NCBI GenBank assembly: GCA_039683575.1
Contig: JBDKRC010000039.1
Location: 1-57,016 of the forward strand
DNA length: 57,016 nt
Direction of reading: 5' to 3'
Source of the DNA: Armatimonadia bacterium
Lineage (GTDB): Bacteria > Armatimonadota > Zipacnadia > Zipacnadales > UBA11051
This document shows, one piece after another, positions 18,135 through 49,344 of the stretch. Position 1 is the stretch's first letter. The number at the start of each line of letters is the position of its first letter. Position numbers and translations under genes: made by a program. The notes under the pieces were generated by a model. It was given only the letters and a program-made list of their open reading frames with translations. It did no database searches and had not been told where the DNA came from.

Positions 18135-18192
18135 TGGTGCCCGAGGAGGGATTCGAACCCACACGCTGCTTGCGCAACAAGGGATTTTAAGT
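18135..18192 (-). repeat. att site: 58-bp duplicate of the tRNA-Leu 3' half
   Basis: Identical to 50983-51040; identity covers CCA through the anticodon loop and ends just past it. Confidence 0.95.
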
Positions 18193-32860: not shown

Positions 32861-34363
32861 CTATATGTAGTACTTGAAGTTTGGCCGTCCCTTCGCGTTG
32901 GCGTCGTTAGTGACGAGTATCTCGCCAACCGCATCCGAGAAACGGATTGTGACGGGTTCCCCGGCGCCCAGCTTGCAGGCGTTGTAGTCCAGCTTGGTGA
33001 GAGCCAGCACGTCAGAGGCTACGGTGTCGAGGTCTGCCTCCCCGTGCTGGATGTCTATGCGAAGCGGGTTCGGGACCTCGAATCCGTCGTAGGTCCCCAG
33101 CCGCGGCTTGAATCCAGATGCCCATAGTAGACAACTCCGGTCGCTAGTGCGCCAGCACGTGCCACGCACGACGGGGTGAGTTCCTTGGCGGTACAGCTTC
33201 AACCCGCCGTGCTCGCCTTGAACTCTCACAGCGACTACTTTGACGCCTGGAGGGCACGCGGATAGGAAGCCGTTCCATTCCTCGTCATCGATACCTGAGC
33301 GAGCGTGGATGAACACCTCGTCAATGGGGCTACCATGCATCTCCTGGTGTGTCTTCAGCGTTCCTGCCAGGAGACTGGCTGCAGCGCTGCCGCTGACGTG
33401 GAACTGCCTCGTCTCGGCAGACCACCAAGGCCCGGTCTCCCCGATGAAAACAATGCCATCACCGTTGTCAACGAACATCAGAGCCGCACAGCATGCTGTC
33501 TTGTCGTCGGCGGCCCTGCCAGTGCGCCGGTATGACATGCCGAGATAGCAGACGCCTGGCCTGGGCGCAGCCAAACGCCACGGCTTGCCGCCGCACTTGT
33601 AGTACAGCGTGGTAGACAGATTCCACATCCTGTCGCACATAGGCGTGAGCCCACGACTGGTGTCCTCATCCGTGAGAGCCAGAGTTGACTGTCGCACTAT
33701 CTGGATTGGCATGCCATAGTCCATAGCCCGGAGCTTGAGTTGCCGCCGAAAGTCACGCGACCGCTTGTACCAGACGGCATCGTAGTCCTCGAACAGATTC
33801 AGAGCACCGGCACGTCTCTGCGATAGGTCACGCCGAGATACCGCTGTCCCCACGGCGTCGGCAACTCCTGACTCAGGGCGACAGTAGAGCCAGACATCGT
33901 CCGGCACGACACAGACTGCGACCCCAAACGACTCGTCACGCCGCCGTGCCACCTCAAGGCCTCCCAGATAGAGTTGCACAGTATCGTTGGCGCGCTTGTG
34001 GGGGTCGGCCTGATGGCAAGCGGCATCCAGGGATGCCGAATCCACTGTGTATGTCCACCCAGCGGCCCCAGGCCACTGTGCCTGGAAGGCTGCCTCAAAG
34101 CCCGGCCAGGGCTGCCACAGTCGTTGGTTGTACTTGGCCGCATCGGCCACCACAGGTCTGGACACCATTGCGGCCCATCTAGAGTATGCCTCCTGACCAT
34201 CTGGTGTGCCGATGACCGCGTAAGTGATGCCGGATGGCCGCGCCGGCGAATCCGCGTCGTACGGTCCAAAGAGCGCCAGGCCGTCGCGAGGATGCTCTGT
34301 CTGCTGCAGATACCTGAACTGAAGATGGGGCTCGGACAATGCGGAGAGCGAAGACTTGGACAT
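32861..34363 (-). CDS. Short prokaryotic Argonaute (MID-PIWI), SPARTA type
   Basis: 500 aa with no N/PAZ domains; HPRDGLALFGP, WNLSTTLYYKCGGKPW, CYLG, GETGPWW, LTKLDYNAC, PVTIRFSDAVGEIL and C-terminal FKYYI. Confidence 0.92.
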   Translation of the reverse strand: MSKSSLSALSEPHLQFRYLQQTEHPRDGLALFGPYDADSPARPSGITYAVIGTPDGQEAYSRWAAMVSRPVVADAAKYNQRLWQPWPGFEAAFQAQWPGAAGWTYTVDSASLDAACHQADPHKRANDTVQLYLGGLEVARRRDESFGVAVCVVPDDVWLYCRPESGVADAVGTAVSRRDLSQRRAGALNLFEDYDAVWYKRSRDFRRQLKLRAMDYGMPIQIVRQSTLALTDEDTSRGLTPMCDRMWNLSTTLYYKCGGKPWRLAAPRPGVCYLGMSYRRTGRAADDKTACCAALMFVDNGDGIVFIGETGPWWSAETRQFHVSGSAAASLLAGTLKTHQEMHGSPIDEVFIHARSGIDDEEWNGFLSACPPGVKVVAVRVQGEHGGLKLYRQGTHPVVRGTCWRTSDRSCLLWASGFKPRLGTYDGFEVPNPLRIDIQHGEADLDTVASDVLALTKLDYNACKLGAGEPVTIRFSDAVGEILVTNDANAKGRPNFKYYI

Positions 34364-34366
34364 GGC

Positions 34367-35722
34367 CTATTCACCCCCATTCGGGTCGTCATTGGCCCCC
34401 GCAGGCAGCCAACTAAGCTCCGACAAGCTCCGCTTGGGTGGCGTCCCCCAACCTAACGGGGCCTGTAGAGCTTCCCCGCAAGTGCTCAGTATGACCTGAC
34501 TGCCGTCACTTGGCCCGAGAGCTATCTGGTCTTGCCCGTCGGCCAGTAGAGACATAACGGCCAGTTGGCGCATCAACCACTGGTGGTTCCACCAATTCTT
34601 GCATATGGACTTCCTGCGGGCGTTCGCGCTGTGATGGGACAGAGGCTGACCGCCCGCATCCGCAATACGCAGTCCGACTTTGAGCAGGGCGGCGGGTGCA
34701 TCCAATATGTCGCGCCGAATGCGGAAGTTGAAACCAAGGTTGTAAGTGAACTGGCCGTTGCCGAAACGGCGCTGGCCTTTTGTGTCGATGTACGTTTTCC
34801 GACCGTCGTGCCTCGCAAAACGGATTCTGTTGTCTGGCAACAGCCCATCTGGAACGTAGTAAAGCTCCGCCTCTCTATCCCATCTGAGGTGCCGCCGGAG
34901 GCAGACACTTCGCAGGACCAGCCAAAGCAGCCTCGCAACCGCATGCTGGGCGTCTACGCCGCCCAACAGCTTGCCCTCCTGCCATGGCACGGCGCCCTCG
35001 ACCTTCCACGACAGTCCCATCTCCTCAGGTGGCGGCCAGAATGCGAGACGGACAACGTTGCTGAGCTTGCGGCTTGGCCAGAGTGCCGTCACTCTCAACT
35101 CATCGTTCTCGTCTATCGGGTCAATGCGGTACTGATTGAGCCACGGGGGAACCGTGACGAAGCGATAGCAGTTCGAGTAGAGCACTTCAGGCTGAACGGT
35201 TGCGGGATGTGCCGGCAGGAACGCGCTTGCGGCTATGGTGCGGCCATTCTGAGCGTAAGGGCGAGGAGCTTCTATCTTGGCAAGTTTCGAGAGCAATTGC
35301 GCGAGCCCCCCGCTCCAGCTTTCATGGAACGGGATGAACGTTAGGTCGGAGGTCATCCAGTCAAGCTCCGTGGGTTTGAGACCTTCGGCATTCAGCGGGA
35401 TGAGGAAATCCTCCTTCCTCTCCTTCGCGAGGTTCAGCGCTGTTGTACGCTCTTTCTTGGGGTTCTCCTTGCTGAGCGAGACGTGGGACATCACAGCCAG
35501 AACGCGGAACGTCCGGTTCTTGATGGCGTAGTCGATATCGCTCGGGTAGCTCTCTCCTCCGAGCAACTTGAGGTGGTCTATCCATACTGCATAGCCCTCA
35601 GAGACGAGCTTCAGGGCGAGCCAGTGTGCGAGGGGCGCATCTTCCCACGCGTAACTGATGAACAAGTGGTCGCGGGTCACCGTTGGTTCCACAAGCACGT
35701 ACCCCCAATGGAGAGCTGTCAA
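34367..35722 (-). CDS. TIR-APAZ effector of a SPARTA system
   Basis: RDHLFISYA...WLALKLVSEGYAVWID TIR domain; C-terminal ARRKSICKNWWNHQW; directly upstream of the short pAgo. The true start may be a few codons downstream. Confidence 0.9.
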   Translation of the reverse strand: MTALHWGYVLVEPTVTRDHLFISYAWEDAPLAHWLALKLVSEGYAVWIDHLKLLGGESYPSDIDYAIKNRTFRVLAVMSHVSLSKENPKKERTTALNLAKERKEDFLIPLNAEGLKPTELDWMTSDLTFIPFHESWSGGLAQLLSKLAKIEAPRPYAQNGRTIAASAFLPAHPATVQPEVLYSNCYRFVTVPPWLNQYRIDPIDENDELRVTALWPSRKLSNVVRLAFWPPPEEMGLSWKVEGAVPWQEGKLLGGVDAQHAVARLLWLVLRSVCLRRHLRWDREAELYYVPDGLLPDNRIRFARHDGRKTYIDTKGQRRFGNGQFTYNLGFNFRIRRDILDAPAALLKVGLRIADAGGQPLSHHSANARRKSICKNWWNHQWLMRQLAVMSLLADGQDQIALGPSDGSQVILSTCGEALQAPLGWGTPPKRSLSELSWLPAGANDDPNGGE

Positions 35723-38756: not shown

Positions 38757-38948
38757 CAGCGAGTGGTGGTTGGTTGCCGGTCCCGCCCGGCAGGCGGTTG
38801 GGGTCTGCGGCCCCAGACCCCGCGCAGCACAGCCCGGCTCTTTGCCGGGCTGTGCTGTCCACGGCGTACAACTGTGATGAGGTTGTCAAGGTTCACGGAA
38901 CGCTCGGCTACCCCGCAGCGGGAGGACCGAGTTGATGGCTGCTCAAGC

Positions 38949-43693: not shown

Positions 43694-44699
43694 CCGTTTC
43701 AGGCCAACTGCGCAATCATTGCTCAATCGGCTTCAATGGAGCCAATCATGTGTCTCAATCGGATTGCGGGCATTGCAGCAATGGTCGCATTTTCCCCGAA
43801 GGCGCATTCTCCCGTGCCGTCTGGGGGTCATTTTCCAACTAGCTGGCAATCATCCCCCTATCTCGCCCAGACTGGCATTCTCCGGGACCACGTAACTAGC
43901 CGGGCACGCGTGGCAATGGTCAATTGAGGTGGCTGAATCCTCAATCGCCGGACAATCGGGAGCAATCGCGGAGCAATTGTCGGGCCAATTGCTGCAATCG
44001 AGGTGGTCCAGTTGATGCAATGAGCGGAGCAGGCTTGGCGGGCGGTGAGTATCCCCCTACAGGGGAAGTTTGAGCGACTTGAATACCGAAAAGTGAGGGG
44101 GGCCGGTTAGGCATCCCCATACAATACCGAAAACCGCACTTAGCGGTACTTAGCCACCCTACTCTTAGCCGGCATGTTTGTTGTCGGGCCTGTTTGACTG
44201 CCAAAGCGCAATGGCATAGACTCTTCACAACTGGACCCGAATTCCCCACGCGGAAGTGCACTACTGTGACTCCCCGGCAGACCGCCCAGGCCAGACGGGC
44301 AGGAGTTCGCGAACTCATGGACGACTTGCTGACTGGGCATTGCAGAAGCGGCAATCAGGGAAGCTTCTCGACTGGCAGGGGAGAGCGGAGCACGCGGTCC
44401 GGAACCTCAGCCCAACGTGATAGGCGAAAGTCTACGAGTTGATGTAGAGCCAGGATGCCGAGGAGCAGCAAAAGCAGCAGTTCCGCGCGATGGGCCGAAA
44501 AGTGAACGACAGGCCCCCGAGAAGGATGTCAGCCGCCTGGCCGCATTAGACGCCCTGCCGCCGGCGGAGCAGGCGCGGTTGGAGAAAGAGGTTCGGGCAA
44601 GCCTGAAGGTTCGCGAATCTCAGAGGATATGCTGAGCCGGCCAATCCCCGGAATCATTGCATCGAGATTGGCTTCATCCTAAAGACAGGGGGAGTTGCC

Positions 44700-45113
44700 A
44701 TGGAGAGCCTCATCTACTGCCTTGTAGGAATAGCGTTCGGAGCATTGGCGAGTTGGTATTTCACGCGAAGCTACTACCTGCGAGCAAAGGCAGACGCGGA
44801 CGCTGCAAGTGCAGAAGGCTTGACCCAGGCGCGGCATATCCAGAATGCGCTGGAAACTCTGGGGGCAAAGTTCGTGTGGGACAGTGACGGCAAAGTCATC
44901 GCCGTTAGCGCCACGAAGGGTCTTCCGACAAGCCTCACGGTTGTAGGCGGCACTCCTCCTCCGCCTAACCCCATCAAAGAGCTACAGACAAGCGTTGAGC
45001 AACTGACTGAGACTCTCCAGGCTATGCAATCGAAGCCCAAGCCGTGGTGGGAGAGGCTAATGCACTGGCGTCGGCCAACGAAGCAGAGCTCGCTCGCTGT
45101 GAAGGGGGAATAG
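44700..45113 (+). CDS. Small membrane-anchored hypothetical protein
   Basis: GGGGAG RBS, N-terminal TM helix, coiled coil ending in KPWWERL. Confidence 0.6.
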   Translation: MESLIYCLVGIAFGALASWYFTRSYYLRAKADADAASAEGLTQARHIQNALETLGAKFVWDSDGKVIAVSATKGLPTSLTVVGGTPPPPNPIKELQTSVEQLTETLQAMQSKPKPWWERLMHWRRPTKQSSLAVKGE

Positions 45114-45115
45114 TC

Positions 45116-45565
45116 GTGATAGGCAACGTACGAACGTCAACGTTCTTTCTCATTTTCGGTTCGATATATGGCGTCGTGGTCGCGGTGGTGTTGCTCGGAA
45201 TGTGGTATAACCAAGGCCCAGGCTTCCCCTCGGAGCGGGCCCTGTATCATCGGGCCAAAGACTGGTGCGACAGTCGAGACAGGTGTCAGCAAGTGGGACA
45301 GGACGGCACCCGATACGATTCCCCCTGGGTAGTCAGTCCCGACAGCGCTGAGATTGTGAAAACGGACTCCATGGTCTACCCCTATCGGGGAAGCGTGGAA
45401 GTCGTGCGGACGTGGAGGACTAGGCCACCACAGGGAGAGGGGAAGTGGGGCATATCCATGTCTCAACCCTTGTTCTTTCGTTTCCACGGAGGGAGGAGTT
45501 GGGGGTATTGGCAGGTGGACGAGTCAGCCAACGGGGAGGCCTCACTTGAGCAGTTGCGGCGCTGA
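45116..45565 (+). CDS. Membrane-anchored exported protein, paralogue of 48536-48928
   Basis: N-terminal TM; KTDSMVYPYRGSVEV and FRFHGG motifs shared with the paralogue. Confidence 0.6.
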   Translation: MIGNVRTSTFFLIFGSIYGVVVAVVLLGMWYNQGPGFPSERALYHRAKDWCDSRDRCQQVGQDGTRYDSPWVVSPDSAEIVKTDSMVYPYRGSVEVVRTWRTRPPQGEGKWGISMSQPLFFRFHGGRSWGYWQVDESANGEASLEQLRR

Positions 45566-45961
45566 CCTGGCAATCGGTCGCCGGCGAAGCGCCGAATCTT
45601 ATGTGCTCGTCAGCCACTAGTCTCCGCGACGGTGACTCCAACCCGCACCACGAGACTCCCCAGGGGCTTCCTCGACACCCGCCGAAAACTGCACCGATTC
45701 CGCCAATCGAGGAACCGTTAGAACCGTGTGCCTGGCGCTGACCTTACTTCCCCCAAACCTCCGCCGTCCGGCGCCTATTCGTCACCTGATAGTGTGAATA
45801 GATAGCCCACCCAGTGAACTAGGCAGGCCCCAGAACGCCTCTGCTATGCCCGATTCTCCCGCACCGCCTGGGCACCGCGCTCCCCCTCAATCTACTATTG
45901 CATCCAGTCCTTCAGTCCAATCGGTCAGTGCATTCGTTCCTGGCCTCGTTCTATCTAAGGA

Positions 45962-45997
45962 AGCGAGAGAGGGACCCCAAGAGGTCCCTCTCTCGCT
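45962..45997. terminator. Perfect 15-bp stem hairpin, probable terminator of the minus-strand unit
   Basis: AGCGAGAGAGGGACC-CCAAGA-GGTCCCTCTCTCGCT. Confidence 0.7.
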
Positions 45998-46019
45998 GTA
46001 CGTCTCTACAGGGCACGTT

Positions 46020-46190
46020 TCACTTGCTGCCGTCGCTGTGCTTCGACAAAAGCTCAGCGGTGTTCGCCCGCTGTTCGTCGTTCAGCTTGTCACACAGCGG
46101 CAGAAGCATCGTAACCAAGCTCCTTAGGCTCTTTCTGCTCGCCTCAGGAAGGCTTCTCAGGTCAATCGTCATCTGCTCGTTGTGGTTCAT
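46020..46190 (-). CDS. Small hypothetical protein (56 aa, below the ORF track cutoff)
   Basis: [56 protein letters not shown], ending just before the hairpin. Confidence 0.4.
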
Positions 46191-46253
46191 AGTACCTGCT
46201 CTCTAGGTGATAGTTGTGCAAGCCCTCGGCAACAGCCAGCCTCGGGTGCTTCG

Positions 46254-47117
46254 TTACGCTGCCGCAATCCTGCGGCAATAGCCAGTCTTGGGTTTTGTTT
46301 CTCTGTTCATCGGTATTGGTTCGCCCGTGACGTTGTAGGTGCCCAGGTCCACCCAGGCATTGTCCATCGCCCGGAATGTACGCGCCAACCTCCTGGCGGT
46401 TGAAGAGGCGAACACGGGCACACTTGCGCAGAGCCGAGTTCGGCTTCTTGGGCTTTCCCTCATTGCTTCCACCCTTGCACACCAGCGGATGAGTCTCTGT
46501 CCATCCATGGGAAGGAGGCTATCGGCGTTCTCGATGTTAGCATTCCTCACGTGTGAGAGGGTAAGCAGGCTAAGCCTTTGGGCATACCACCCGAATGCGC
46601 GAGTGTGCACGATGAGAGTCTTGATGTACCGTTTGCTCCACCCTTGCGGACCAAGTGGGTGATTGTTGGCACCAACCGATACTTCTTGACGCTCTGGAAC
46701 CTTCGCCAAGCACCTCGCCAGCAAACGCCAAGTGCCCATTTCGCAGACATAGCGACTGTCGCCAATCATGGAGCTCCGCCTCTCTCTACGCTGACCTGAG
46801 TCTATGCTGAAGCAGTGACTCTTCCGTCTTACGTGGTCACTCCGGTCATTGTGGCTCAGAGGAGATAGCGCCGTCCTAACGGCAATGGCATTTCGAAGCT
46901 GCGCTATCACTGAATGACCTGTGCCTCCCAAACCAATGACTAGGATGGGGTGTGGCGAGACGGTTCTGACGGTCTGTCGAGTCTGCACCTGTGGCTTCTC
47001 AACCCCATCAGCGAGAGTATCTCTCATTGGTCTTAGGTAAATCACCGGCAAGTGTAGCCGCGACTCACTATCTATCGCTACCAATAGGTTCGGGTGTGGG
47101 CATGCCACCTTGAGCAT
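46254..47117 (-). CDS. Hypothetical mosaic ORF (tubulin-like GLGGTG segment; overlaps an out-of-frame S12 fragment)
   Basis: Strong RBS GGAGAGGAGGAG before ATG 47117; [19 protein letters not shown] motif. Confidence 0.45.
46363..46455 (-). pseudogene. rpsL: Internal fragment of a ribosomal protein S12 gene (31 codons)
   Basis: [31 protein letters not shown] matches the S12 core [24 protein letters not shown]; the flanks are unrelated. Confidence 0.8.
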
Positions 47118-47184
47118 AGGTTTCTCCTCCTCTCCACTCTGACCGTTAGGCCATGCAATCTGACAAGGAGTGGTATGGTCGATG

Positions 47185-47212
47185 CCTGGGGAGGCATACC
47201 CGCCTCCCCAGG
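47185..47212. terminator. 11-bp stem hairpin between the HTH gene and the mosaic ORF
   Basis: CCTGGGGAGGC-ATACCC-GCCTCCCCAGG. Confidence 0.55.
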
Positions 47213-47229
47213 ACATCTGGCCTACTCGC

Positions 47230-47457
47230 TTACGCCACGTACGCCTGCAGTTCATCGCGAAGGAACTTCTTGATACGCTTCAACCGCTTCGCAACCCAAG
47301 ACTGGCTATTGCCGAGGGCTTGCGCAACCACCGCTTGTGAGTAACCTTCACTCTCCACGAGGACAAAAATGACAATGTCCTCCGACTCAATCTTGCCTTC
47401 GCGAATCCCGCAGAGCATGGCGATGATGAGGTCGATAATGAAATCGACGTTTCTCAT
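47230..47457 (-). CDS. Small sigma-70 region 4-like HTH protein
   Basis: EGYSQAVVAQALGNSQSWVAKRLKRIKKFL; AAGGAG RBS. Confidence 0.65.
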   Translation of the reverse strand: MRNVDFIIDLIIAMLCGIREGKIESEDIVIFVLVESEGYSQAVVAQALGNSQSWVAKRLKRIKKFLRDELQAYVA

Positions 47458-47670
47458 CGGTAGCTCCTTGCAGATTGTCAAAGTTCGCCGGGAGCAATCT
47501 CCCGTTATGTCAGCAGACTGTGCTTCCCCCCCCTCGATGCCTGGAAGCTACCCTCCTCGTAGGCGTAGATTTGAGCTGGGAGCCCAGCTTGGTTCATCTT
47601 CATCCTACCACTTCTCCGCGACTATTATTCCACCTTAGCAACTAATTCTTACAGACGCCATAAGTCCATT

Positions 47671-47710
47671 GTTTTACGCTATTGACCGTATACGTAAAAC
47701 GTGATACGCT
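47671..47710 (+). promoter_or_regulatory. Resolvase promoter overlapped by an inverted repeat (candidate res/operator subsite)
   Basis: TTGACC (47682-87), 17 bp, TACGCT (47705-10); IR GTTTTACG (47671-78) / CGTAAAAC (47693-700). Confidence 0.55.
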
Positions 47711-47743
47711 TCGGGCGTTCACGAACTACAGGAGAACACTCAT

Positions 47744-48484
47744 ATGGCAAGGCCCAGAGGCACCCGAAAGGAGCGAGAGCGGCAGGCACGGCTACTGAAC
47801 GGCGAAAGCCGCTTCATTGGCTACATCCGGGTTTCGACAGCGGAGCAAGGCACCAGCGGACATTCGCTATTGGGTCAGGTGTCACGGCTCCAGGAAGCCG
47901 CCGGACGTGAGGGCTTGGAGCTGATAGACGTTGTGCGCGACGTGGAAAGCGGAGCGAAGCAGCGCGACGGTCTGGAGGAGGTCTGGCAGCGCGTGCTCGC
48001 CGGCGAGGCGGAGGGTATCCTGTTCCCCAAGCTGGACCGCCTGGGGCGCTCACAGCTTCACCTGGCGTCCCTGGTGGAGGAAGCCCGCGACCGGGGCATT
48101 AGCCTGCTGAGCAGTGATGAGGGTTGGCAGGTCTTTCGCGGGGAGCTTCGCAACGAGACCCTGCCTTTCCTGATTGCCCTGGCCCAGGTGGAGCGGGAGC
48201 GTATCAGCCGGCGGACCAAAGAGGGACTTGCGGCGGCGCGGTCGAAAGGAGTTAGCCTGGGGCGGCCCCCGTTGAATGTGGACCTGCAGGAGCGAGCCAC
48301 AAACCTTCGCCGGCGGGGTGATTCTCTGCAGGCTATCGTCGATGTTTTCAACGCAGAGGGCCATCGGACAGCAACCGGGGCAGAGTTCAAGCCCACGACC
48401 GTCTGGCGGATGGTGAACCGAATTGACCCCACGGCTAACCCCGAAGGGGGGCACCGGGGAAAAGACCTGGCCGCCGTCGTGTAG
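47744..48484 (+). CDS. Serine recombinase (resolvase/invertase family)
   Basis: GYIRVSTAEQ (catalytic Ser), KLDRLGRS, ERERISRRTKEGLAAAR...GRPP. Confidence 0.92.
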   Translation: MARPRGTRKERERQARLLNGESRFIGYIRVSTAEQGTSGHSLLGQVSRLQEAAGREGLELIDVVRDVESGAKQRDGLEEVWQRVLAGEAEGILFPKLDRLGRSQLHLASLVEEARDRGISLLSSDEGWQVFRGELRNETLPFLIALAQVERERISRRTKEGLAAARSKGVSLGRPPLNVDLQERATNLRRRGDSLQAIVDVFNAEGHRTATGAEFKPTTVWRMVNRIDPTANPEGGHRGKDLAAVV

Positions 48485-48535
48485 CAGGGCGCAGTAAGCA
48501 CGACGCGGCGGAAATTGATAGGGGGTAAAGTCAGG

Positions 48536-48928
48536 ATGAAATCGGCTCGCGGTGTCGCAATCACCATCCTGTGCATTCAGCTCCTACTGATTGTTGCTGC
48601 CGGGTGTGGTGAGCAGGCTACAGAATCATCGCTATTCCGAGCTGCCGAGAAGTATTGCCGCGACAAGAATGAGCAGGCCAAGCCGACGCTTTCATCGAGT
48701 GGGACGAAACTGCAGTCTTTCTGGCAGGTGCTCTATGACAAAGAGCGTGACGTGAGAAAGACCGACTCGGTTGTGTATCCCTATGAGGGCGCTGTCCAGG
48801 TGCTGGAAATCTGCCGGGAGTGGGACACCAAGTCTCAGACCTGGGTGGAAGCCTATCGCTTTGCCGAGACCATTCTCACATTCAGGTTCCACGAGGGACA
48901 TTGGGAGTTGTACTCAGAAGGCCATTAG
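48536..48928 (+). CDS. Putative lipoprotein, paralogue of 45116-45565
   Basis: Lipobox-like IVAAGC; KTDSVVYPYEGAVQV and FRFHEG. Confidence 0.65.
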   Translation: MKSARGVAITILCIQLLLIVAAGCGEQATESSLFRAAEKYCRDKNEQAKPTLSSSGTKLQSFWQVLYDKERDVRKTDSVVYPYEGAVQVLEICREWDTKSQTWVEAYRFAETILTFRFHEGHWELYSEGH

Positions 48929-49095
48929 TGGTCTCAGACAGACGTGCCTACGACTTCAGGGGGCACGCCTACCGGCATAGCAGCAAACGTCATAGAGGCG
49001 AGTTGCCGCCCGCCGCGGCCCTTCCAAAGCTACGGACCTTAGGCGCTGGAACGCGCTGCGCTGGTTTCGCAAAGGGTCACGGCTGTTTTGAGCCG

Positions 49096-49344
49096 GGCGA
49101 GGCCCTGGATGCCCGCTACGTGCGACAGTTGGTCAAGCGGTTGGCTGACAAAGCCGGCATTGAGCGCCGCGTCCATCCGCACATGTTGCGCCACACAGCG
49201 TTGACGGCTCTCCATGACAAGACGCACGACTTGCGCCTGGTCCAGCACGTGGCAGGCCACACGACCTCGCGGATGACCGAGCGGTACACGCACGTTCACC
49301 CGATTGCCGTCGCGGAGGCGATGGGGGCCATAGACAGCCAGTGA
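49096..49344 (+). pseudogene. C-terminal fragment of a second tyrosine recombinase
   Basis: VHPHMLRH...VAGH...TERYTHV are present, but the first catalytic Arg region and the N-terminus are absent. Confidence 0.75.

Follow-up and report, generated by a model that had tools for sequence, protein, structure and literature searches.

The window, the whole 57,016-nt stretch of DNA analyzed here, contains a 33-kb island (18135-51040) that carries a tyrosine integrase and is bounded by a 58-nt perfect direct repeat of the 3' part of tRNA-Leu(TAA), at 18135-18192 and 50983-51040. The cargo of the island consists of an SNF2/PLD helicase and an Eco57I-type methylase, TIR proteins, a GmrSD-like nuclease, a Rep-like gene, ankyrin proteins, and a short pAgo with TIR-APAZ. 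A chimeric open reading frame (ORF) lies 11 kb from the pAgo pair, between a small HTH gene and a set of inverted-repeat copies, and a small serine recombinase and a truncated integrase (48820-49344) are found nearby. The features of the locus are as follows.

46045-46073, (-) strand: terminator-like hairpin that ends in a T-rich tail and lies past both alternative stop codons, from a consensus scan only
46213-46247, (-) strand: inverted-repeat arm, copy 1, forming 31 Watson-Crick plus 3 G.U pairs of 35 on the HTH-sense strand
46254-47117, (-) strand: chimeric ORF of 287 codons, within an open frame of 341 codons that reaches up to 47279
46263-46294, (-) strand: inverted-repeat arm, copy 2, with 29 of 32 Watson-Crick pairs to arm 1
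46281-47288, strandless: single 1008-nt contig of run X1, 0 differences, a contig without strand information
46353-46456, (-) strand: rpsL piece B, codons ~55-88, coding for the S12 PNSA-loop core and read in frame +2 with respect to the ORF
46457-46489, (-) strand: possible indel-ridden extension of piece B, codons ~44-54 (CARVEA vs CTRVWA), weak
46490-46637, (-) strand: spacer of 148 nt, not recognizably rpsL by shuffle test
46638-46690, (-) strand: rpsL piece A, with the RBS region, the GTG start and codons 1-11/12, read in frame +1 with respect to the ORF
46872-46943, (-) strand: Tubulin_2-like N-terminal motif, Pfam E 0.0058, below cut-off
47118-47140, (-) strand: Shine-Dalgarno region GGAGAGGAGGAG, 6 nt before the ATG by inspection
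47180-47212, (-) strand: GC-rich hairpin that directly follows the HTH stop codon and recurs in the homologue in genome G017
47230-47457, (-) strand: small HTH gene, 75 aa from Met9, resembling sigma-70 region 4, Pfam E 7e-4, below cut-off
47293-47328, (-) strand: inverted-repeat arm 1, within the HTH coding sequence (ALGNSQSWV), from a repeat search
47744-48484, (+) strand: small serine recombinase, Pfam Resolvase E 9.6e-29

The ORF had been described from the letters alone as a 287-aa frame with a strong RBS on the (-) strand, and its coordinates are confirmed, with GGAGGAG positioned 6 nt 5' of the ATG. A 7-mer Shine-Dalgarno site of this type precedes only 79 of 1619 long ORFs genome-wide. 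The 341-codon open frame was reached in 0 of 2000 dinucleotide shuffles, where the longest frame had a mean of 132 and a maximum of 297, and each of the remaining five frames at the locus is interrupted by 10-17 stops. The codon score of the ORF is -0.18, where long host ORFs have 0.37±0.16 and intact genes of the island 0.08-0.28, and the GC3 of the ORF, 0.61, is the lowest of the island genes tested. No homologues were found among 1.84 billion representative proteins, in the 157-503-aa set out of 5.8 billion proteins, or in metagenome contigs. There were likewise none in 66 other genomes of the order, the two matches being rpsL read out of frame. Because the homologue searches were empty, there is no evolutionary evidence of coding for the ORF. 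An AlphaFold single-sequence model gave a mean pLDDT of 30.2 and is uninformative.

A sigma-70 promoter scan at the locus returned 0 sites, and the Rfam 15 covariance models returned chance-level microRNA and snoRNA rows only over 45800-47800. RNA folding gave z-scores of -2.46 and -2.51 on the two strands, both somewhat better than shuffles, so that the strands are not separated. The PADLOC defence models assigned 0 families to the ORF, the HTH protein and the recombinase; the pAgo and TIR-APAZ genes alone match. Nothing ties the locus to this short pAgo/TIR-APAZ pair, and the link to Argonaute guides that had been speculated upon is not supported.

The 5' part of the ORF contains the tubulin-like segment that had been noticed before, as a weak match to Tubulin_2 (PF13809; 16.3 bits vs a cut-off of 27) that covers positions 1-24 of 356. 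Membership in this family takes a cut-off score across the GTPase domain, which the ORF does not reach. For ORF residues 1-130 the nearest ESM Atlas clusters carry Tubulin_2, with a score of 0.88 (<0.9; 188 of 256 features), a resemblance that ranks as a lead and not as proof. Further along, the AWVDLGTYN stretch is present with the GC-rich third positions ascribed to it (G or C at 13 of 16, by inspection). Its proposed origin in a further gene did not find support, as no donor was found in the host genome, the representative proteins or the rpsL comparison. A third S12 piece beneath this stretch, resembling VKDL..YHV, was considered and rejected, with 70 of 300 and 83 of 200 shuffles scoring as well.

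The original prediction placed an out-of-frame S12 core at 46363-46455. In another frame of the same strand this interval matches PF00164 positions 25-56 of 110 with E 1.6e-11 and 44.3 bits (cut-off 22.3), and the match is therefore significant; the idea of a single 93-nt capture did not hold, as a second piece, at 46638-46690, had been overlooked. When real S12 proteins were compared by tblastn against 1.3 kb, piece B was recovered at E 1.6e-17 and the residues of piece A at E 0.006-0.016 (4 of 13 S12 queries listed), with no other match below 0.01. Piece A is colinear with piece B, on the same strand and 184 nt upstream. By blastn, 46641-46690 aligns with the RBS region, GTG and first codons of the host rpsL at 76% over 50 nt, and the nucleotide alignment score of piece A, 39, exceeds the maximum of 34 in 300 shuffles (300/300 beaten). 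The extension of piece B around CARVEA is weak, with a tblastn E of 0.029 and 64% identity with gaps. The ORF, piece A and piece B occupy three different frames.

The genome carries two S12 matches in all, a full rpsL on contig C190 (125.1 bits, positions 2-107), which is the genome's own S12 gene, and the relic (43.8 bits), which is the one copy outside the full gene. The relic scores above the PF00164 cut-off, but the whole 110-position domain is absent from any single open frame. It is thus a fragment and not a uS12 member gene, because it covers PF00164 positions 25-56 only, its eleven N-terminal residues lie in a different frame, and the spacer and tail are unrelated. The comparison with host rpsL that had been called for gave 83% identity for piece B over 101 nt, with differences biased toward third positions. 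One run of 24 nt is identical between relic and host gene, and the two start regions are identical at 39 of 58 nt. Antisense duplexes of the relic pieces with host rpsL are predicted at -67 and -163 kcal/mol, vs -27 and -61 for shuffles.

The borders of the pieces are sharp. Against codons 13-43 of 13 rpsL genes, 37 of 200 shuffles score as well as the spacer, and over the 100 nt past the core 83 of 200 shuffles score as well as the real sequence, i.e., this tail is not rpsL-like. The S12 proteins of 13 same-order genomes are conserved along their entire length. The sharp borders are therefore real breakpoints, since S12 is conserved over its full length while the spacer and tail are not rpsL-like.

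The source of the pieces was sought in rpsL from the 13 genomes of the same order, aligned over a 90-nt core. The relic core is 80-84% identical to these genes, which are 78-90% identical among themselves, and only two residues are unique to it (T to G, E to D). The 14 differences between relic and host rpsL fall at codon positions 1, 2 and 3 as 1, 1 and 12; codon positions 1 and 2 together differ at 2 of 60 sites and position 3 at 12 of 30. An old pseudogene of the host's own rpsL was rejected, as positions 1 and 2 would then be expected to show about half of the position-3 drift. Since the differences are mostly at third positions, the pieces come from a working rpsL elsewhere and not from a slowly decayed host copy. 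These substitutions show that the relic still belonged to a functional rpsL in the fairly recent past, either in another lineage or as a long-lived paralogue.

A scan of 401 genomes of the phylum found matches to the rpsL core in 242, the best at 85% and those of same-order genomes at 75-85%, and no better donor than same-order rpsL was found in it. No split or duplicated rpsL was seen among the listed phylum genomes, each of which, except the source genome, has a single core match. In a search by DNA, 40 relatives matched the segment through their own rpsL only, plus one 35-nt match upstream of the recombinase. A plasmid search gave 4 records, all across the rpsL-core part (2 annotated as rpsL, 2 without an annotated feature), and searches of phage sequences and of viral contigs gave no match. 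Mutagenesis of the DGR type was rejected, as the differences between relic and rpsL are not limited to adenines. A reverse transcriptase inside the island was also rejected, the genome's only RVT_1 match being on contig C320.

The mosaic could be observed independently in contigs of four runs, X1-X4, all labelled metatranscriptomic and coming from one wastewater study with two samples, which were compared over 44500-49000. The 1008-nt contig of run X1 bridges every internal join of the mosaic. The contig of run X2 covers 46281-47249 and then runs into adapter sequence, and the segment is present in two pieces in run X3 and in three pieces in run X4. The run with the segment contig also contains 327 nt of the recombinase gene without any difference, and because neighboring recombinase pieces and sequence beyond match without differences, the island occurs in these RNA samples. 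RNA libraries can contain DNA, the contigs are strandless, and contig depth cannot rank genes; the depths in X1 of 43 for the segment and 3.2 for the recombinase piece are mere hints, as are the contig ends. The contigs stop at 46281, short of both stop codons (46254 and 46162). The flanks at 44500-46280 and 47369-48123 have no contig cover, and uncovered parts were not counted as evidence.

These contigs bear on a question raised by the quality of the genome, a metagenome-assembled one in 352 contigs with 2% contamination, in which a mosaic might be an assembly chimera. In addition, no contig in the four runs joins the segment to its flanks across 46281 or 47288. The internal joins, however, are not a genome-assembly artefact, because independent contigs span them with 0 differences, including the full-length one in X1 and partial copies in three more runs. 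Also, the first 14 nt of the segment fall in a repeat arm whose partner sits in the flanking HTH gene, which ties the segment to its place. An assembly chimera is therefore largely refuted for the internal joins, and as an explanation of the locus as a whole it is scarcely credible. The prediction of a true mosaic, inside a mobile island as the tRNA-Leu repeat shows, was borne out: sharp-bordered rpsL pieces, a non-rpsL spacer, a tubulin-like 5' end and a joined frame far longer than expected by chance are all present. No homologue of full length turned up in the protein, genome and metagenome searches, the match to S12 reaches significance, and the joins are confirmed by independent contigs.

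The RNA libraries also revealed a second allele. The X2 contig (depth 30) is 2 nt shorter in the GTGTG run at 46478. Computed on the window, the shorter allele leaves residues 1-213 unchanged, after which the S12 core is read in frame; the product has 317 aa, and its stop codon is at 46162. A duplication of 165 nt is also possible at 46435-46599. The coexistence of two frame alleles in one sample argues against constraint on the C-terminal quarter of the product, or for a switch.

The HTH gene provides the link to a second locus. Its protein is held in the database as a 75-aa protein and has one homologue only, in genome G017. Among the 401 phylum genomes, 8 have a match at E <= 0.001, the source genome included; G017 matches at E 5e-13 in an 81-aa frame, and in the other 6 the matches lie inside longer open frames of 132-354 aa, which are taken to be sigma-factor-like region 4. 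A protein search within the class matched 2 of 79 genomes, and a search of 5.8 billion proteins gave 2 matches, one being the window's own. There were no homologues in metagenome contigs, and no TubR family match for the gene in Pfam.

The G017 locus has the same layout at 38% HTH protein identity. The DNA for GKSQSWV is repeated in inverse 360 nt downstream, and a GC-rich hairpin follows the HTH stop codon. Short upstream motifs are common to both HTH loci, and one such motif is repeated in G017. Between the arms G017 has a tRNA gene on the HTH strand (47.5 bits, 8-nt anticodon loop). No recombinase was found beside this module within the 3.2 kb examined.

In the window the repeat arms are 32-35 nt long with a 22-nt identical core and flank 998 bp. 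The two downstream copies are tandem partners of arm 1, and the motif is absent elsewhere in the genome. Pairing of the arms is stronger on the HTH-sense strand than on the opposite one both here (-80.2 vs -69.6 kcal/mol) and in G017 (-46.1 vs -29.5 kcal/mol). Over the three arm pairings, the sense strand has 8 G.U positions, or 7 once the outermost position in G017 is dropped, vs 2 on the opposite strand. The repeats are favored as an RNA stem because of the stronger sense-strand pairing in both loci and this G.U asymmetry; the pattern of arm mismatches is a modest sign, read from the sequences, for a long-range RNA stem over recombination sites. Several hints point to the (-) strand, namely the sense-strand arm pairing, the position of the G017 tRNA on the HTH strand, and the terminator-like site on the (-) strand.

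Together, the rpsL pieces, their foreign origin, the joins, the unusually long frame, the presence in RNA libraries and the layout common to G017 are the observed basis on which we infer the strand, the translation, the role of the stem and the history of the locus. The best explanation, held at somewhat under even odds (roughly 45%), is a young chimeric and lineage-restricted transcription unit that is transcribed from the (-) strand, bracketed by a stem, and probably translated in its long frame, its S12 pieces having no S12 function. A two-gene cassette, composed of the small HTH gene followed by a tubulin-like gene with its own strong RBS, would have lost most of its second gene. The surviving tubulin-like 5' end would then have been fused to unrelated DNA, which includes two pieces of a functional rpsL from another bacterium of the same order. 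The S12 pieces would be passive building material, out of frame in the assembled genome, whereas the co-occurring allele that is 2 nt shorter would read the S12 core in frame and yield the 317-aa product. Transcription would proceed on the HTH-sense (-) strand, with translation of the chimeric frame starting from the Shine-Dalgarno site. The 32-35-nt HTH coding stretch would pair with the inverted copies behind the ORF to form a long-range RNA stem, and this stem would bracket an RNA of ~1 kb, probably governing its processing.

Other explanations were weighed against this one. The locus might be inert debris, a decaying junction of nested mobile elements that is transcribed by incidental read-through from the HTH promoter and whose frame is functionless. 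The failure of all searches to find a homologue, the poor codon usage, the tolerance of a frameshift allele and the truncated integrase at 48820-49344 would be expected of debris, as would the unconfident single-sequence fold, though that is not informative. But debris does not readily account for a 341-codon frame that none of 2000 shuffles reached, for a strong Shine-Dalgarno site at the correct spacing, or for a 2-nt allele that still has a long frame of 317 aa, and the inverted-repeat and hairpin layout was kept in the sole homologous locus at 38% protein identity. Debris is on balance an unlikely account. The repeats raise a different prospect, since a small serine recombinase is adjacent to 998 bp flanked by 32-35-nt inverted repeats, one arm of which falls within a gene, as in an invertible switch of the Hin/Gin type, where a flip of the ~1-kb segment would recode the HTH C-terminus or reverse the RNA. 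In G017, however, the repeats occur without a recombinase in the 3.2 kb examined, so that the two do not travel together. The close relatives of the recombinase (76-79%) are three copies within a single public Armatimonadia assembly; what they have in common with the locus is limited to the gene and ~75 nt upstream, and all three are without the segment. The contigs of the four runs, none of which bridges the arms, contain no inverted joint, and the arm mismatches favor RNA pairing. An invertible switch is therefore very unlikely.

Two further accounts concern the rpsL sequence itself. In one, the locus makes a regulatory RNA that works through its rpsL parts, either from the (+) strand as an antisense to the rpsL start and core, or from the (-) strand, in which case it would imitate the rpsL 5' region and so titrate a factor. 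What was retained is the RBS with the start, plus the rpsL stretch of highest conservation; the relic agrees with the host gene exactly over one run of 24 nt, the predicted duplexes are stronger than those of shuffles, the segment is present in RNA libraries, and both strands fold somewhat better than shuffles. Yet the strand hints favor the sense strand, no Rfam family matches and no relatives are available for covariation, the long open frame and Shine-Dalgarno site are left unexplained, and we know of no factor that binds the rpsL 5' region. This role is quite unlikely. In the other account the relic is a displaced head of rpsL, brought from an earlier host by an element that integrated into the rpsL core. 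The relic does span only the 5' UTR to ~codon 88, its end falling in the DNA stretch of highest conservation, and a site-specific serine recombinase lies 1.3 kb away. Against this, no split or duplicated rpsL occurs among the listed genomes of the phylum scan (401 genomes, 242 matching), an unrelated 148-nt spacer inside the relic is unexpected, and the relatives of the recombinase occupy other contexts. Such an event is improbable; it bears on the origin alone and can stand together with the main reading of a young chimeric transcription unit.

In a bolder reading, this defence-island locus would make a stem-bracketed RNA of ~1 kb with the start and decoding-loop segment of rpsL. It might act on the translation of the host or of an invader, as an rpsL mimic or antisense, or, by a 2-nt slippage-type switch, through a chimeric protein in which the S12 decoding loop comes into frame. 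In the same reading, the locus may belong to a small, undescribed class of HTH-linked modules that enclose translation-related cargo, the S12 pieces here and the tRNA in G017. This is quite unlikely, a long shot; what bears on function comes from one genome and one relative. If the frame is translated, the locus would be a rare datable bacterial gene put together out of parts of unrelated genes, among them an essential ribosomal gene used out of frame, with natural alleles that differ in the frame used. If it acts as RNA, a mobile island would carry an essential host gene's start region. In both cases, foreign rpsL pieces travel in integrated islands, which bears on how mobile DNA samples conserved genes. 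Were the locus debris only, it would be a well-documented case of long open frames and expression arising without function.

In the titles and abstract openings of the literature surveyed, nothing describes rpsL fragments carried by mobile elements or an HTH-repeat module of this sort. Set beside described systems, the separate ingredients are of known kinds: conserved-gene fragments in islands, orphan chimeric ORFs, invertible segments and processing stems. Integrative and conjugative elements (ICEs) target ribosomal-protein genes such as rplL or rpsI, and gene ends left over in integrated elements resemble the relic in being short, foreign and non-functional pieces of a conserved gene in an island with recombinases. 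The relic, however, is a 5' part and not a 3' end, is split by unrelated DNA, and lies away from the island's own attachment site at tRNA-Leu, and no rpsL-targeting element was seen in the listed genomes of the phylum scan. DicF is a prophage antisense RNA against ftsZ, and here too a mobile element has a sequence that either complements the translation start of an essential gene of the host or is identical with it. The RNA at this locus would be ~1 kb as opposed to ~50 nt, and the start-region identity is 39 of 58 nt.

The Din-family invertible segments, such as the H segment of Salmonella and the G segment of Mu, share with the locus a ~1-kb segment, inverted repeats of ~34 bp, an adjacent small serine recombinase and one repeat in coding sequence, but the association is absent in one related module (G017) and the arm mismatches fit RNA pairing. 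Long-range stems that bracket a processed RNA are known from the RNase III stalks of rRNA precursors and the sib retroregulation of lambda. As in these, two distant complementary stretches of 32-35 nt would lie on one transcript and enclose the RNA found in the libraries, with one arm in the mRNA of the upstream gene; the contig ends (46281 and 47288), in contrast, do not match a symmetric cut of the stem. TubR-TubZ systems are type III partition cassettes, which likewise have a small HTH gene followed by a tubulin-like GTPase start, and the upstream motif common with G017 adds to the likeness. Here the match is limited to 24 of 356 profile positions and stays below the cut-off, the remainder of the ORF is unrelated, and there is no TubR match.

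Also comparable are the chimeric transcripts of plant Pack-MULEs and the overprinted or de novo ORFs, which are chimeric or orphan genes. Pack-MULE transcripts are similar in that fragments of unrelated genes lie between inverted repeats as one unit with a long frame and with donors out of frame, whereas the present locus is bacterial, its repeats copy part of the neighboring gene, it exists as one copy in the genome, and no transposase is present. What is unusual is the combination: recently cut pieces of a foreign rpsL, the start region among them, a long open frame across them, presence in RNA libraries, natural frame variants, and a layout like that of a tRNA-bearing module.

Contigs assembled from the metatranscriptomic runs showed two sequence variants inside the segment that holds the 287-codon chimeric ORF (46254-47117, minus strand). 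The GTGTG run at 46476-46480 has a 2-nt length variant in a contig of run X2, at a depth of 30, and run X1, made from that sample too, shows the reference form. By computation, the 2-nt variant moves the ORF into the S12 frame. The second variant is a 195-nt contig of run X4 that maps to 46435-46599 and then continues with its own first 30 letters again, the pattern expected from a 165-nt cycle or a tandem duplication at k = 31. The sequence CGAGT is present at either edge of this unit, whose length, 165 nt, is a multiple of 3. Run X3, from the same sample as X4, is linear across 46435-46599. The repeat in X4 could be a duplication variant or a cDNA artefact.

The segment, the small HTH gene and the serine recombinase gene form a block with paralogous small ORFs on either side, for both of which no Pfam family was found. 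A palindrome lies in the ORF-poor stretch left of the segment.
45044-45565 and 48515-48928, plus strand: two paralogous small ORFs with a motif in common, KTDSMVYPYRGSVEVV and KTDSVVYPYEGAVQVL
45962-45997: palindrome, 36 nt, 89%

The DNA upstream of the HTH gene carries two motifs that are common to the window and to the locus of the gene's only homologue, in genome G017; GAACYTTGACAA is repeated in G017. One more motif copy lies behind the Rep-like gene, at 38894 on the minus strand of the window.
47475-47503, minus strand: motifs GGGAGATTGCTC and GAACYTTGACAA, upstream of the HTH gene
1838-1915 of locus L031 (G017 contig C401): tRNA gene, Rfam 47.5 bits
The tRNA gene has an anticodon loop with one extra base, and ARAGORN was unable to name its anticodon. 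It is enclosed by the inverted repeats of the HTH homologue and belongs to a 1.3-kb insert that is flanked by host genes and looks AT-rich by eye.

About 75 nt 5' of the serine recombinase gene (47666-47743) are kept along with the gene in its relatives. One public Armatimonadia assembly has three copies of gene and upstream DNA together (L026, L027 and L028), two of them adjoined by a primase-like ORF, and a contig of another genome has a 35-nt match to the upstream DNA at 97% (G038:C85:15501-15535). The conserved stretch may be a promoter or the site of the recombinase itself.

A 58-nt perfect direct repeat (18135-18192 and 50983-51040) corresponds to the 3' part of tRNA-Leu(TAA), and these repeats are the borders of a 33-kb integrated island.
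49472-50428: tyrosine integrase of the island
48820-49344, plus strand: truncated tyrosine integrase that matches only positions 101-169 of its profile
The truncated integrase adjoins the intact one, which suggests that this site had already received an older element.

Among the genes carried by the island are those for an SNF2/PLD helicase with an Eco57I-type methylase, for two TIR-DUF5679 proteins, for a GmrSD/HNH protein and for a further pair of proteins.
32861-35722, minus strand: short pAgo (PADLOC pAgo_I, E = 8e-167) and neighbouring TIR-APAZ protein (E = 5e-61)
These two neighbours form a pair resembling the SPARTA system.
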